Of a stretch of 64,000 nt of DNA, positions 47,104-49,662 are shown piece by piece. Under the pieces are notes generated by a model. It saw only the letters and a program-made list of their open reading frames with translations. It did no database searches and was not told the origin of the DNA. Numbering within the stretch: position 1 is the first letter of the stretch; every line of letters begins with the position of its first letter. Origin of the DNA: Escherichia phage ECO4; sequence record NC_054911.1; one strand, 5' to 3'. The position numbers and the translations under genes were made by a program.

Positions 47104-47367
47104 TTATTTCATATTATTGAAATATTCTTCTGCAATTTCGTCGTTATCATGATAAACTTTAGAAGACAGTTTAACATAACCTTCAGCAGTGAACATGTTA
47201 ATCACAACCTTTACAGTATACCACTGACCATCTTCATTACCCATTACTGCGTAAGTTTCAAACATCGGATGATCAGGACCGATAACTTTAATATCATTCA
47301 CTGTACGACCAAAATCTTCTGAAACACATTTCATAAAGAAGTTGAACAGTTCGCCGTAATTATCCAT
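47104..47367 (-). CDS. hypothetical protein
   Basis: ATG 47367 with GGAG RBS downstream of early promoter; track start is TTG artefact. Confidence 0.5.
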   Translation of the reverse strand: MDNYGELFNFFMKCVSEDFGRTVNDIKVIGPDHPMFETYAVMGNEDGQWYTVKVVINMFTAEGYVKLSSKVYHDNDEIAEEYFNNMK

Positions 47368-47410
47368 TTCATTCTCCAAGTTGTTTTCTGTATCAGTAGT
47401 TGATAGTTGT

Positions 47411-47440
47411 ATAGTACCATGGAAGAACAGGGATGTAAAC
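47411..47440 (-). promoter_or_regulatory. early promoter, GTTTAC-18nt-TACTAT
   Basis: Upstream of ORF 47104-47367; about 70 bp near-identical to the 3841-3912 copy. Confidence 0.7.
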
Positions 47441-47573
47441 AGTTTTGTGAAAAATTTTTTAAAAAGTTTTGGGGAATTCTAGGGCAAGGAGGGGAAATCA
47501 AAGGATAGGATAATATATTATAAAGGGTAGAAACTAAATGATGCCTAGAGAGGCCTGGAAAGGCCTAGATACC

Positions 47574-47601
47574 AAAAAGCCCCAACCTTTTGGTCGGGGC
47601 T
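47574..47601 (-). terminator. intrinsic terminator (10-bp stem, GNRA loop, U5)
   Basis: AGCCCCGACC-AAAA-GGUUGGGGCU followed by UUUUU. Confidence 0.75.
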
Positions 47602-47608
47602 AAGAATG

Positions 47609-48084
47609 TTATTTGATTTGTTTAGCAGACCAAATGCGGTCTTTAATAATTTTTTGGATGTCTTCAACATACTCTAGGTCATGAGCATGTGGGTTATCTT
47701 TAAAGCTATGAGCACGAGCTAGCTTTTGGCCTTCAGTTTTGATTACTAAAAGCTCTTTAAGGATAGCTTCATATTTGGAGATAATTCCTTTAACGATATT
47801 TTTTTTTCTTGTGCGACTTTAGGATCTGCTTTAGGAGCAGGTTTACCCGAAGCCTTTGCAAAAGCAGCGCCAGTAGCAACTAAACTTTTCCAGGCCATAC
47901 TAACTGCATTTCCCGTAAATCCTTCCGCTTTCATGTCGCGTGCGAACTGAAATCGCGATTCATCAGAAGCATCTTTGTAAGAATATTTACCCGCTGCAAT
48001 GGCTGCTTTTGCGACAGCTTGAATTTCGGTGCTAGATGCTTCATTTAACACCGCTTCATTTAAAAATTGAGTATATGATTTCAT
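47609..48084 (-). CDS. internal-protein-like gene with capsid-targeting N-terminus, broken by a frameshift at an A9 tract
   Basis: N-terminus MKSYTQFLNEA; annotated frame stops at 47746 but a start-less protein-like frame continues to a stop at 47609 next to the terminator; frames meet at the T9/A9 run 47799-47807; late promoter TATAAATA upstream. Confidence 0.5.
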
Positions 48085-48120
48085 CTTATTTCCTGTTTTA
48101 ATTCGTGGATTTAATATACT

Positions 48121-48128
48121 TATTTATA
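48121..48128 (-). promoter_or_regulatory. late promoter TATAAATA for internal-protein-like gene
   Basis: Minus-strand TATAAATA immediately after terminator hairpin, 37 nt upstream of ATG 48084. Confidence 0.6.
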
Positions 48129-48130
48129 CT

Positions 48131-48158
48131 AAAAAGCCCCAACCTTTCGGTCGGGGCT
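48131..48158 (-). terminator. intrinsic terminator (10-bp stem, GAAA loop, U5); near-identical copy of the 47574 element
   Basis: AGCCCCGACC-GAAA-GGUUGGGGCU followed by UUUUU. Confidence 0.75.
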
Positions 48159-48465
48159 AAGCCTTGCGGCAACCTTGTCGGGGTTCCACCTGCTAAGGCA
48201 AGTGTTTGTACGAAACGCCGGGATTCGAACCCGGTTATCAAGCAGTTGACGCTACTCAATATTTTTAAAAGGCCATATCTCGACCATATCCGAACGTTCC
48301 GTCAAAAACGCTACTCGGTTTACGGCAAAGATATTTCCTCGAATCGATAATTCGGTGCGCCGTTTCTGCTGTGATAGTAAAGAGCCAGAACACAGTAAAA
48401 CTGTGGGAGGAAACTATACTCCAGGGAACATCAGTCCGACGACTTACCGGTAGCGACCCGGTTTC
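48159..48465 (-). ncRNA. candidate small stable RNA(s) downstream of tRNA cluster (T4 RNA C/D-like position)
   Basis: No ORF; contains tRNA-like T-arm GGGTTCGAATCCCGG and stem-forming segments; ends at a strong terminator hairpin. Confidence 0.35.
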
Positions 48466-48816
48466 TTAGTATTCTTTTAAAGCATCAACCTGTTCACGAC
48501 GTTTACGCCATAAATCAATTACTTCATACGCAGATTCAGCATTTCGAATTGGACGGCATTTATATAAAGACTTGTGATTTTGATATTGTGTAGATAACGG
48601 AATTTTATCTAAAAGGTCTTTACGTTCAAAATATTCGTAACCATCTAAACCAAATGAACGATTTTTGAGAAATTGCCAATGACCAAATTCGTTTTCGACA
48701 TAAACATAATCTGCGTGTTGATAAAGCAAATTAGTTTCACGAGATGAGATATGGTTTTCATATTCATTGAAGTAAAATGTTAAATCATGAACTACTAAGT
48801 AAACATTACCTTTCAT
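48466..48816 (-). CDS. hypothetical protein
   Basis: 116 aa, strong RBS GAGGAAAATATG, immediately downstream of tRNA-Arg. Confidence 0.55.
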   Translation of the reverse strand: MKGNVYLVVHDLTFYFNEYENHISSRETNLLYQHADYVYVENEFGHWQFLKNRSFGLDGYEYFERKDLLDKIPLSTQYQNHKSLYKCRPIRNAESAYEVIDLWRKRREQVDALKEY

Positions 48817-48834: not shown

Positions 48835-48910
48835 TGGTCGAGGCAGTAGGGATCGAACCTACGACCCAGGACTTAGAAGGTCCTTGCTCTTCCTTCTGAG
48901 CTATGCCTCG
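48835..48910 (-). tRNA. tRNA-Arg (anticodon UCU), CCA encoded
   Basis: Manual cloverleaf: acceptor CGAGGCA/TGCCTCG, anticodon loop CTTCTAA, T-loop TTCGATC. Confidence 0.8.
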
Positions 48911-48914
48911 TATT

Positions 48915-48989
48915 TGGCGGACGTGATAGGATTCGAACCTATAACCAATCACTTAACAGGCGATCGCTCTGCCATTGAGCTACACATCC
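48915..48989 (-). tRNA. tRNA-Asn (anticodon GUU), CCA encoded
   Basis: Manual cloverleaf: acceptor GGATGTG/CACGTCC, D-stem GCTC/GAGC, anticodon loop CTGTTAA, T-loop TTCGAAT. Confidence 0.75.
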
Positions 48990-48993
48990 AAAT

Positions 48994-49080
48994 TGGTGGG
49001 GAGTGATGGAGTCGAACCACCCGAGTCGCAATGACAATGGATTTACAGTCCACACCGCTACCTCTACGGGATAACTCCCC
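48994..49080 (-). tRNA. tRNA-Tyr (anticodon GUA), class II with long variable arm, CCA encoded
   Basis: Manual fold: acceptor GGGGAGT/ACTCCCC, anticodon loop CTGTAAA, long variable arm, T-loop TTCGACT. Confidence 0.7.
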
Positions 49081-49089
49081 AAATTAATT

Positions 49090-49164
49090 TGGTGGCCCTG
49101 GGTGGAATTGAACCACCATCTGGCGATTATGAGTCGCTTGCTTGAACCTTCCAGCTACAGGGCC
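49090..49164 (-). tRNA. tRNA with CAU anticodon (Ile2 or Met), CCA encoded
   Basis: Acceptor GGCCCTG/CAGGGCC, anticodon loop CTCATAA, T-loop TTCAATT; position of tRNA-Ile in T4. Confidence 0.75.
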
Positions 49165-49165
49165 T

Positions 49166-49241
49166 TGGTGCTGATTGACGGAATCGAACCGCCGACCTTC
49201 TCATTACAAGTGAGTTGCTCTACCTACTGAGCTAAATCAGC
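49166..49241 (-). tRNA. tRNA-Thr (anticodon UGU), CCA encoded
   Basis: Acceptor GCTGATT/AATCAGC, anticodon loop CTTGTAA, T-loop TTCGATT. Confidence 0.8.
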
Positions 49242-49246
49242 AAAAC

Positions 49247-49336
49247 TGGCGGAGGCGATAGGATTTGAACCTATGAGTCGCCGGAGCGACTGCCGGTTTT
49301 CAAGACCGGTGCATTAAACCACTCTGCCACGCCTCC
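49247..49336 (-). tRNA. tRNA-Ser (anticodon UGA), class II
   Basis: Acceptor GGAGGCG/CGCCTCC, anticodon stem CCGGT/ACCGG with loop CTTGAAA, long variable arm. Confidence 0.8.
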
Positions 49337-49338
49337 AG

Positions 49339-49412
49339 TCTCCGCGGCAGGATTTGAACCTACGACATTCTGCTCCCAAAGCAGACGCTCTACCAAACTG
49401 AGCTACACGGAG
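49339..49412 (-). tRNA. tRNA-Pro (anticodon UGG), CCA not encoded
   Basis: Acceptor CTCCGTG/CGCGGAG (C1-G72), anticodon loop TTTGGGA, T-loop TTCAAAT. Confidence 0.8.
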
Positions 49413-49422
49413 TAAATTAAAT

Positions 49423-49496
<74 letters not shown>

Positions 49497-49501
49497 AAAT
49501 T

Positions 49502-49588
49502 TGGTGCGAGAAGTGGGACTCGAACCCACAAGGAAATCATTCCGCAGCATTTTAAGTGCTGTGCCTTTACCAATTTGACCATTCTCGC
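49502..49588 (-). tRNA. tRNA-Leu (anticodon UAA), class II, CCA encoded
   Basis: Acceptor GCGAGAA/TTCTCGC, anticodon stem CAGCA/TGCTG loop CTTAAAA, long variable arm. Confidence 0.8.
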
Positions 49589-49589
49589 G

Positions 49590-49662
49590 CTGGGAATAAA
49601 GGACTCGAACCTTTGCATCCTGGAATCAAAATCCAGTGCCTTACCAACTTGGCTAATTCCCA
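49590..49662 (-). tRNA. tRNA-Gln (anticodon UUG), CCA not encoded
   Basis: Acceptor TGGGAAT/ATTCCCA, anticodon stem CTGGA/TCCAG loop TTTTGAT, T-loop TTCGAGT. Confidence 0.8.

Follow-up and report, generated by a model that had tools for sequence, protein, structure and literature searches.

The distal end of the tRNA operon of Escherichia phage ECO4 very probably carries the orthologues of the phage T4 genes rnaD and rnaC, followed by a conserved trailer and the operon terminator. The window, by which we mean the whole stretch of 64,000 nucleotides analysed here (sequence record NC_054911.1), comes from a T4-like phage of the genus Tequatrovirus. On its minus strand, positions 48469-48130 hold rnaD, a short spacer, rnaC, the trailer and the terminator, in this order. 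A blastn search of phage records gave 812 matching records, including T4 (MT984581) at 91% identity. In T4 and in phage Aplg8, rnaC ('species 1 RNA') and rnaD ('species 2 RNA') are annotated exactly under the match. The suggestion of a preliminary description, that the region could be the counterpart of the T4 species 1/2 RNAs, was thus borne out by the match and by the same synteny. The two RNAs at this locus are a real feature that is already known; their genes being annotated in T4, they have little weight as a discovery. The T4 species 1 and 2 RNAs have been known since the 1970s, when they were sequenced as RNAs. Transcription of the T4 cluster yields a single precursor and stops behind the species I gene (PMC2330249). 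Late in infection both RNAs build up as discrete species that northern blots reveal (PMC9697503), and their function is given as unknown (PMC3014915). The comparison offers a concrete, testable anatomy for this question of about 50 years: a tRNA-shaped and apparently unchargeable rnaC with complementary loops, an rnaD with a swappable hairpin, and the conserved trailer as a third element.

The gene order is that of T4, namely tRNA array, tRNA-Arg, rnaD, rnaC, terminator and e.8. Ten tRNA genes (Gln, Leu, Gly, Pro, Ser, Thr, Met, Tyr, Asn and Arg; 48835..49662, minus strand) were located with ARAGORN and the Rfam model RF00005, and this array is the upstream part of the rnaD/rnaC operon. All elements from rnaD to the terminator, which lies directly downstream, share the strand of the ten tRNAs. 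As in T4, rnaD (about 116 nt, ~48354..48469, minus strand; annotation carried over from T4 and Aplg8) sits between tRNA-Arg and rnaC. However, T4 rnaD abuts tRNA-Arg, whereas here an ORF of 116 aa (phrog_3355; 48466..48816, minus strand) is inserted between them, as seen from the ORF list and the comparison with T4, which has no gene at this position. This ORF ends with a TAA stop codon (48468..48466) that falls on the first bases of rnaD, and therefore the 5′ processing of rnaD cannot match that of T4. In the alignment, a 6-nt spacer, GAAUUA (48348..48353, minus strand), separates rnaD from rnaC (139 nt, 48209..48347, minus strand), which was identified by T4 identity, fold and covariation. 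The AAUUA leader is also found 5′ of rnaC inside the tRNA arrays of other genera. The ends of both RNAs were transferred from the T4 annotation and are predicted here.

The comparison with the T4 RNA C and D sequences that the preliminary description proposed was made. For rnaC, 135 of the 139 bases are identical to T4 rnaC (139 nt) over the full length with no gaps, and the position after rnaD and before the terminator, the strand and the predicted fold are all shared. One of the four substitutions turns a U-A pair of hairpin 2 into U-G. In rnaD, the 5′ 46 nt and the 3′ 24 nt are nearly identical to those of T4 rnaD (118 nt), but the middle ~50 nt cannot be aligned with it and form a different hairpin, of the type shared with L013 and L017. 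The terminal CC is followed by G, whereas in T4 it is followed by A, and consequently no CCA is encoded in rnaD here.

The structure of rnaC was analysed in an alignment of 16 distinct sequences from Tequatrovirus, Karamvirus, Kanagawavirus and IMG/VR contigs. The RNA is predicted to form a tRNA-shaped four-way junction, and this structure is supported by covariation. It comprises an acceptor-like stem of 7 bp, a long, greatly enlarged arm where tRNA has its D arm, a hairpin of 10 bp (hairpin 2) in place of the anticodon arm, and a T arm. Over 46 pairs, 98.6% of the alignment cells were paired, and 20 pairs had changed on both sides; none of 500 shuffles was as good, and slid pairings gave 36-48%. 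The third pair of the acceptor stem is A-U in eight sequences and G-C in the other eight, and the middle pair of the T stem (columns 120/132) is G-C in 10, U-A in five and A-U in one. By itself, rnaC folds better than shuffled sequence (z = -4.28), and the whole interval of 351 nt does so by a wide margin (z = -6.35). The tRNA-like T arm noted in the preliminary description is present as CCGGGTTCGAATCCCGG (minus strand, 48234..48218), a CCGGG/CCCGG stem with the loop UUCGAAU, visible in the sequence and supported by covariation of the middle stem pair.

With tRNA (RF00005), rnaC shares the four-way junction and the terminal stem of 7 bp. Its T stem of 5 bp carries a UUCGAAU loop and directly precedes the 3′ strand of the acceptor stem, and a linker of 4 nt takes the place of the variable loop, again as in tRNA. 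Unlike tRNA, it is 139 nt long, with a long irregular arm in place of the D arm and a 12-nt linker. The 10-bp 'anticodon' stem carries the 6-nt loop CGUCAA instead of a 7-nt anticodon loop, the acceptor-like stem holds two invariant U·U pairs, and the acceptor strand is followed by a conserved UACAA tail rather than by NCCA. In one lineage (Q7622 type) the T-loop is replaced by UGCAUGC, hence the canonical tRNA elbow is not essential to rnaC. Hairpin 2 was also considered as the variable arm of a class-II tRNA. This candidate was rejected on inspection of the sequences, as the acceptor pairing that it implies mismatches just where the terminal stem covaries.

The loop at the tip of the long arm, UUGACG (48300..48305, minus strand), is invariant in 16/16 sequences of the alignment. 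Base for base, it complements the CGUCAA loop of hairpin 2 (48246..48251, minus strand), which is likewise invariant in the alignment, and helix 6 of the model is unchanged in 16/16 sequences. Neither side ever varies, which places the contact beyond the reach of covariation. The two loops may form an internal kissing contact that fixes the shape of rnaC. In the minimum-energy fold of KMB17, the loop regions form a long-range helix instead. A required long-range helix replacing the two hairpins was rejected on the hairpin-2 stem of L055, which is completely different while the CGUCAA loop is kept. This was judged by reading: in our own reading, the L055 stem extends the long-range helix only over the six loop bases and a short GCG/CGC stretch.

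The likeness to tRNA raises the question of whether the region holds decayed tRNA remnants or a neutral spacer, with the T arm as a relic without selected function. The T arm and the acceptor-like stem do adjoin the tRNA array. The best Rfam match over rnaC was a tRNA-Sec hit far below threshold (16.4 bits against 47 bits, E = 5.6), and in Entb_43 ARAGORN miscalls a 'tRNA-Phe' across part of the rnaC homologue. Against this stand the compensatory changes with 98.6% pairing over three genera, the covariation of both rnaC and rnaD, the invariant loops and U·U mismatches, and the near-invariant 70-nt core of rnaD amid diverging neighbours. We regard such a relic as highly improbable. Neither RF00005 nor ARAGORN found a tRNA within 48159-48465. 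Rfam was scanned both at the gathering threshold and with E <= 10; no family was found for rnaC, rnaD or the trailer, and the matches to tRNA-Sec, isrK and anti-hemB were at chance level. An Rfam scan, put forward earlier as a deciding check, cannot decide the identity, because Rfam 15 returns no relevant family; the rnaC and rnaD alignments could seed two new ones. YrlA (RF02553) resembles rnaC in concept only, both being non-coding RNAs with a tRNA-like module. The tRNA-like module of YrlA can be processed by tRNA enzymes, and its terminal stem is the Ro-binding site. In rnaC the acceptor-like stem is itself made of the two ends, and a separate terminal stem as in YrlA is lacking. RF02553 had no significant match over rnaC or rnaD, and the YrlA matches obtained (19 and 28.5 bits against a 69-bit threshold) lay on genuine tRNAs.

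The distribution of the elements among relatives was also compared. In Karamvirus, rnaC lies in the middle of the tRNA array, with a tRNA gene before it, separated by a short A-rich leader, and tRNA-Gly after it. In Kanagawavirus Q7622, too, it comes right after a tRNA gene, with a similar short leader rich in A between them. From this placement directly after a tRNA gene in both genera, rnaC behaves as a tRNA-like processing unit. In the arrays of these two genera rnaC stands alone. It is absent from IME08-type and VR20-type genomes, and in Dhakavirus-type genomes rnaD and the trailer are present and rnaC is absent. The comparison thus shows rnaC and rnaD to be independent modules.

The preliminary description had stated that the interval contains no ORF. 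This holds for long ORFs, but mechanical ORFs of 32-81 aa overlap it, and a protein-coding function could be sought in the plus-strand ORF of 81 aa (48105..48350, GTG start) or in the minus-strand ORFs of 53 and 42 aa. These ORFs exist mechanically, and a 'hypothetical protein' is listed under the match in many GenBank records. In many phage records the rnaD/rnaC region has no annotation, and in some an ORF or a tRNA is annotated there. However, the loss of rnaC from IME08-type and VR20-type genomes removes most of the 81-aa ORF as well, the substitutions track RNA pairing and not codon positions, and the T4 annotation is that of a stable, experimentally observed RNA. Since rnaC is cleanly absent from several relatives, the ORFs over the interval are not conserved as coding, and we give a coding function practically no credence.

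The whole interval had no blastn match in 5,426 complete E. coli genomes, and mimicry of a host RNA was rejected on this result. Homologues outside T4-like phages were sought by scanning metagenomes and GTDB species genomes with sequence patterns, and no match of the right length lay in a bacterial genome; matches of the expected 88-89 nt occurred only on metagenome contigs, several of which are 167-174 kb long, like T4-type genomes. The other pattern-scan matches had the wrong spacing and were taken as chance without inspection. Six G+C-rich IMG/VR matches (L022, L023, L030, L035, L036 and L056) were discarded, as they did not align with the RNAs.

The predicted fold of rnaD consists of a 5′ hairpin and an irregular rod closed by the 3′ end. 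Across genera, its 5′ 46 nt and 3′ 24 nt are near-invariant, giving a core of 70 nt whose neighbours diverge. A variable hairpin lies between the two parts (about 48421..48376), and at least three unrelated sequence versions were seen at this position. In the covariation analysis, 96.6% of cells were paired, six pairs had changed on both sides, and slid controls gave 32-49%. The closing pair of the 5′ hairpin occurs as A-U, G-U and G-C, and one pair of the central helix is U-A in eight sequences and A-U in six. Sixteen of the 24 pairs never vary, and two helices, both invariant, cannot be tested by covariation. Taken by itself, the rnaD sequence folds no better than its shuffles (z = -0.28). 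The preliminary description had looked to covariation or similarity to known phage small RNAs as a test of its proposal, and both were found, with pairs changed on both sides in rnaC as well as in rnaD. When a T4-like phage was evolved on a semi-permissive host, the same single SNP arose in all three lines and was placed in rnaD (PMC12685909).

Downstream of rnaC lies the 3′ trailer of ~50 nt (48159..48208, minus strand), which was recognised by comparing tRNA-operon trailers and carries no annotation in T4. Its 34-nt core (48204..48171) is invariant in the trailers compared and unchanged across Tequatrovirus, Dhakavirus and Gaprivervirus-type genomes, while the flanking content differs. The trailer occurs once per genome and only in phages that bear rnaD, including those without rnaC. 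In the IME08 type, a compensatory change turns its small hairpin from GCC-GCAA-GGC into ACC-CUA-GGU. Two structural candidates were rejected. Pairing of the operon leader (upstream of tRNA-Gln) with the trailer as an rRNA-style processing stem gave a duplex energy of -36.7 kcal/mol, where shuffles averaged -34.4 (sd 4.3), and pairing of rnaD with the trailer was equalled or exceeded by 211/500 and 163/500 shuffles.

Trailer and terminator together (48208..48130) might constitute a small RNA of their own, perhaps an Hfq-binding regulator or sponge. A precedent is E. coli 3′ETS-leuZ, a fragment freed from the 3′ end of a tRNA precursor that acts as a sponge. The core that stays invariant despite differing flanks, the stable hairpin and U tract at the end, the single copy found only with rnaD and the compensatory change in the IME08 type would all suit such an RNA. 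On the other hand, two alternative folds fit the few variable positions of the trailer equally well, and it has no significant complementarity to the operon leader or to rnaD. Moreover, in VR20 the trailer follows an ORF, and for this reason it may be a mere conserved recombination or terminator module. We consider a separate trailer RNA very unlikely.

As rnaC presents an acceptor/T-arm helix, we infer that host tRNA-maturation enzymes cut it out of the operon transcript. The 3′ end of rnaD would be set by the same cuts and then trimmed back to the terminal stem. In the T4 literature of the 1970s-80s, RNase P makes the 5′ cut, and endo- and exonucleases act on the 3′ side. Self-cleavage of the species 1 precursor of T4 has also been reported.

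As to function, we tentatively suggest a reading that we hold to be possible rather than probable, namely that rnaC is an unchargeable tRNA mimic and that rnaD is an RNA apart from it, with an exchangeable hairpin that adjusts an interaction specific to the host. The mimic may occupy or scaffold a tRNA-binding factor. Alternatively, the RNAs and the trailer could act only in cis as signals for processing, stability and termination, with the released fragments as by-products. Such a role fits their place at the operon's 3′ end, immediately ahead of the terminator, the trailer that is kept whichever RNA precedes it, and the decades in which no function of these RNAs has become known. However, the rnaC of Karamvirus is flanked by tRNA genes, with no terminator or trailer adjoining, and there both loops and the U·U-bearing acceptor stem are still invariant. 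The late build-up of the T4 RNAs as discrete species and the SNP placed in rnaD in all three evolved lines during host adaptation also argue against by-products, and we find a purely cis-acting role unlikely. Quite unlikely, in our view, is a more specific proposal in which rnaC is an uncharged tRNA decoy and rnaD bears a counter-defence hairpin, or in which the trailer is a third functional RNA. The decoy would absorb or block a host tRNA-targeting enzyme, e.g., an anticodon nuclease of an anti-phage defence, by means of the GUC-containing invariant loop, the U·U acceptor stem and the internal loop-loop contact. The exchangeable hairpin of rnaD would then be the host-specific counter-defence determinant, which would fit the SNP of the three evolved lines (PMC12685909). 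The trailer, as a third RNA, could be a sponge or regulator of the 3′ETS type or could direct the 3′ cleavage of the upstream RNA.

The operon ends at terminator copy 1 (48130..48158, minus strand), which has, in line with the preliminary description, a 10-bp stem and a loop of the GNRA type, here GAAA; seven of the pairs are G-C, and a U tract follows. The near-exact second copy reported there also exists (47601..47573, minus strand), but its loop is AAAA and not GNRA. The structured region had been placed between twin terminators; this was wrong, as it lies upstream of copy 1, and the two copies flank a separate ORF cassette (47602-48130). Each copy is a G+C-rich hairpin with a U tract, as expected of an intrinsic terminator, and the motif occurs twice in the 64 kb against zero expected by chance. 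Both are part of a direct repeat of 36 nt (47569-47604 and 48126-48161) whose copies are 94% identical and 557 bp apart, and we infer recombination at these repeats. Copy 2 corresponds to the single terminator junction of T4, from which the 557-bp single-gene cassette is absent. A motif scan found the late-promoter-like sequence TATAAATA right after copy 1 and upstream of the cassette ORF (48121..48128, minus strand). We take it to be the T4 late-promoter consensus; it is kept at this position in relatives, and the window as a whole holds 12 such motifs against 10.6 expected, which is no enrichment.

The arrangement resembles the PeSL cassettes of T4-type phages, in which repeated stem-loop terminators likewise flank one variable ORF (PMC2839356, PMC4122927). 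Downstream of copy 2, a TTTACA-N17-TACTAT promoter fits the published PST/T4 consensus, as in PeSL. In contrast, copy 1 is followed by TATAAATA, whereas the published PeSL couples the stem-loop to an early promoter, and the stem sequence here differs from the published PeSL stems. In the cassette gene (phrog_2280; 47602..48084, minus strand), identified from the ORF list and relatives, a frameshift in the A9 run around 47800-47810 splits the reading frame here, and an intact version of 157 aa is present in Aplg8.

The window belongs to a Tequatrovirus. We compared its segment 48100-48500 with phage genomes by blastn, and 812 phage records were matched, with phage NBEco003 at the top (99.8% identity). 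The T4 match showed 91% identity, and the matches in T4 and Aplg8 coincided exactly with the annotated genes rnaC ("small stable RNA; species 1 RNA") and rnaD ("species 2 RNA"). In the alignment of rnaC with its T4 counterpart, 135 of the 139 bases were identical. Since both RNAs also share the strand of all 10 tRNA genes, the preliminary description was correct in proposing a counterpart of the T4 species 1/2 RNAs: the locus is real, but it is already known. By sequence, position and structure, the two RNAs are assigned to the T4 rnaC and rnaD families. An Rfam scan, which had been proposed as a check, returned nothing relevant because neither RNA has a family in Rfam 15. What remains of value is seed alignments for these two families absent from Rfam, a covariation-backed structure for each RNA, and two leads, namely an invariant loop pair in rnaC and an unannotated conserved trailer limited to rnaD-bearing phages. 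Complete E. coli genomes contained no sequence similar to the interval. When metagenomes and GTDB species genomes were scanned by pattern, expected-length matches turned up on metagenome contigs only, several of which are of T4-type genome size.

The genes are arranged on the minus strand. The tRNA array (49662..48835) contains 10 tRNA genes and ends with tRNA-Arg (48910..48835). One of its members, tRNA-Tyr (48994-49080), barely passed the Rfam tRNA model (30.2 bits, threshold 29); its nine neighbours scored 59-73 bits. Between tRNA-Arg and rnaD lies a 116-aa ORF (48816..48466; phrog_3355, E = 9e-53) that T4 does not have. The stop codon of this ORF overlaps the beginning of rnaD, and therefore the 5′ end of rnaD must be produced here by a different route than in T4. 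Aligned to T4, rnaD occupies ~48469..48354 and rnaC 48347..48209, separated by the spacer GAAUUA (48353..48348). The conserved trailer (48208..48159) and the first terminator (48158..48135, followed by a U tract) come next. Compared with shuffled sequence, the interval as a whole folds far better (z = -6.35). It had been described as free of ORFs, and several mechanical ORFs of 32-81 aa do overlap it. The T-arm-like sequence CCGGGTTCGAATCCCGG noted earlier is present at 48234..48218.

The secondary structure of rnaC was examined in an alignment (A4) of 16 distinct sequences. The consensus contains 46 pairs with 98.6% of cells paired, and both sides have changed in 20 pairs; none of 500 shuffles was as good, and controls with slid pairing reached 36-48%. 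The comparison supports a predicted four-way junction arranged like a tRNA. In the 7-bp terminal stem, the third pair is A-U in eight sequences and G-C in eight, and positions 4 and 5 are each an invariant U·U. The D-arm position is taken by an AGG/CCU helix followed by a long irregular arm, which occurs in two unrelated sequence versions of common shape. A 12-nt A-rich linker leads to hairpin 2, which occupies the anticodon-arm position and has a 10-bp stem and an invariant 6-nt CGUCAA loop. After a 4-nt linker comes the T arm, the middle pair of which alternates between G-C, U-A and A-U, and the 3′ tail is a conserved UACAA, not NCCA. UUGACG, present in every case at the tip of the long arm, is the exact complement of the CGUCAA loop, which suggests a candidate internal kissing contact with both sides invariant. 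This complementarity is kept in both versions of the long arm and also in one sequence (L055) whose hairpin-2 stem differs completely. In one Kanagawavirus lineage (L009, L024, L032, L034), the T loop is UGCAUGC instead of UUCGAAU on a retained stem, and the role of rnaC, whatever that is, therefore does not need a canonical T loop.

We rejected the possibility that rnaC is a genuine tRNA. It resembles one in layout, yet it stays below the tRNA model thresholds of ARAGORN and Rfam, and it has neither a 7-nt anticodon loop nor a CCA end. The Rfam scan gave no match of rnaC to YrlA. Public annotation of rnaC is inconsistent; features under the rnaC-region match in GenBank records are "tRNA-Lys", "tRNA-Arg", "hypothetical protein" or none. 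In Entb_43 (L007 1179-1274), ARAGORN wrongly reported a 96-nt "tRNA-Phe" that covers part of the rnaC homologue.

Homologues of rnaC were collected from Tequatrovirus genomes, Karamvirus (KMB17, Entb_43), Kanagawavirus (Kosakonia phage 305, Q7622) and IMG/VR contigs. In Karamvirus, rnaC is flanked within the tRNA array by tRNA-Trp and tRNA-Gly and follows a short A-rich leader, which in KMB17 is AAUUA; rnaD is absent. In Kanagawavirus Q7622, rnaC directly follows tRNA-Met. IME08-type genomes lack rnaC cleanly, and their rnaD adjoins the trailer. The two RNAs are independent modules. A conserved ~130-nt non-coding element was seen directly downstream of rnaC in Q7622 (L009 ~1283-1414) and Kosakonia 305 (L006 ~1406-1540). 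It is closed by an 8-bp terminal stem (UGAUUUGU/ACAAAUCA) and contains a D-arm-like GGUAGA segment as well as a T arm (GGUUCGAGCCC). It was called by neither ARAGORN nor Rfam and is possibly a second tRNA-like RNA that has escaped annotation.

Folded alone, rnaD of the window was no better than shuffled sequence (z = -0.28), and therefore the structural evidence for its predicted five-part fold is purely comparative. In 16 distinct sequences (alignment A7), 96.6% of cells were paired and both sides had changed in 6 pairs; the slid controls showed 32-49% pairing. The closing pair of the 5′ hairpin appears as A-U, G-U or G-C; the 7-bp terminal stem is invariant and incorporates the 3′ end; the internal loop is purine-rich. 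In the short helix UGUU/AGCA, the first pair is U-A in eight and A-U in six sequences, with two exceptions. The base of the variable hairpin covaries, and its body comes in three or more unrelated sequence versions (T4/VR20 type, window/L013/L017 type and IME08 type). The 5′ 46 nt and 3′ 24 nt of rnaD are near-invariant between genera.

The trailer core (48204..48171) was invariant among the trailers compared. Both the IME08-type genomes and VR20 retain it; in VR20 the place of rnaC is taken by an ORF and other sequence. The core occurs once in the window, and in IMG/VR it was found once per genome, restricted to rnaD-carrying phages. Within the trailer, one small hairpin has changed in a compensatory way, from GCC-GCAA-GGC to ACC-CUA-GGU, and two alternative folds are equally compatible with the few variable positions. 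Neither the operon leader nor rnaD showed significant pairing with the trailer.

Host tRNA-maturation enzymes would excise rnaC because it presents an acceptor/T-arm helix. In the older literature, RNase E/III-type cuts and exonucleases are described on the 3′ side of rnaC, with its 5′ end cut by RNase P. The 3′ end of rnaD would be set by the same cut and then trimmed back to the terminal stem. The T4 tRNA cluster is made as one precursor including species I and II, and transcription stops after species I (PMC2330249). The main rival explanation is that rnaC, rnaD and the trailer act solely in cis, as signals for processing and stability. In T4, both RNAs accumulate late in infection and are visible on northern blots (PMC9697503); their roles are stated as unknown (PMC3014915). 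Our best guess, itself rather unlikely, is that rnaC is an unchargeable tRNA mimic that occupies or scaffolds a tRNA-binding factor. As a separate RNA, rnaD would carry an exchangeable hairpin that tunes a host-specific interaction. The sole functional hint found comes from the evolution of a T4-like phage on a semi-permissive strain of E. coli, in which an identical single SNP arose in 3/3 lines and was located by the authors in rnaD (PMC12685909). From their coordinates, we computed that it falls in the 3′ half of the rnaD variable hairpin.

The first terminator has the 10-bp stem and GNRA (GAAA) loop that had been reported. Its near-exact duplicate was also found, at 47601..47578, with a loop that is AAAA, not GNRA. 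The structured region does not lie between the two, as had been described, but upstream of the first. Both copies lie within a 36-nt direct repeat (47569-47604 and 48126-48161; 94% identical, 557 bp apart), and the 64-kb window contains the motif only at these two places (0 expected by chance). In T4 there is just one terminator, whose upstream flank matches that of copy 1 and whose downstream flank matches that of copy 2, so the 557-bp segment with the TATAAATA motif (48128..48121) and the phrog_2280 gene (48084..47602) is a cassette absent from T4. This is compatible with published work on T4-type phages in which modules are shuffled through terminator/promoter elements (PMC4122927). A predicted TG-extended TTTACA-N17-TACTAT promoter is located downstream of copy 2 at 47411-47439 (minus strand), upstream of an e.8-like ORF (47104-47379). 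It fits the PST/T4 PeSL early-promoter consensus TTTACW-N17-TAYWAT (PMC4122927).

The phrog_2280 gene is frameshifted at a run of nine A's near 47800-47810: the first 112 aa and the C-terminal ~63 aa (…KGIISKYEAILKELL…WSAKQIK*) are read in different frames. The Aplg8 version is intact (157 aa). The frameshift may mark a slippery site or a pseudogene, or may stem from a sequencing error. Just upstream of a TATAAATA motif, repeated hairpins of the form GAGCGG-N-CGGUGCG-N-CCGG were observed as pairs in genomes of different genera, namely VR20 (L005 ~2000-2090), Kosakonia phage 305 (L006 ~1650-1715) and Q7622 (L009 ~1530-1600).
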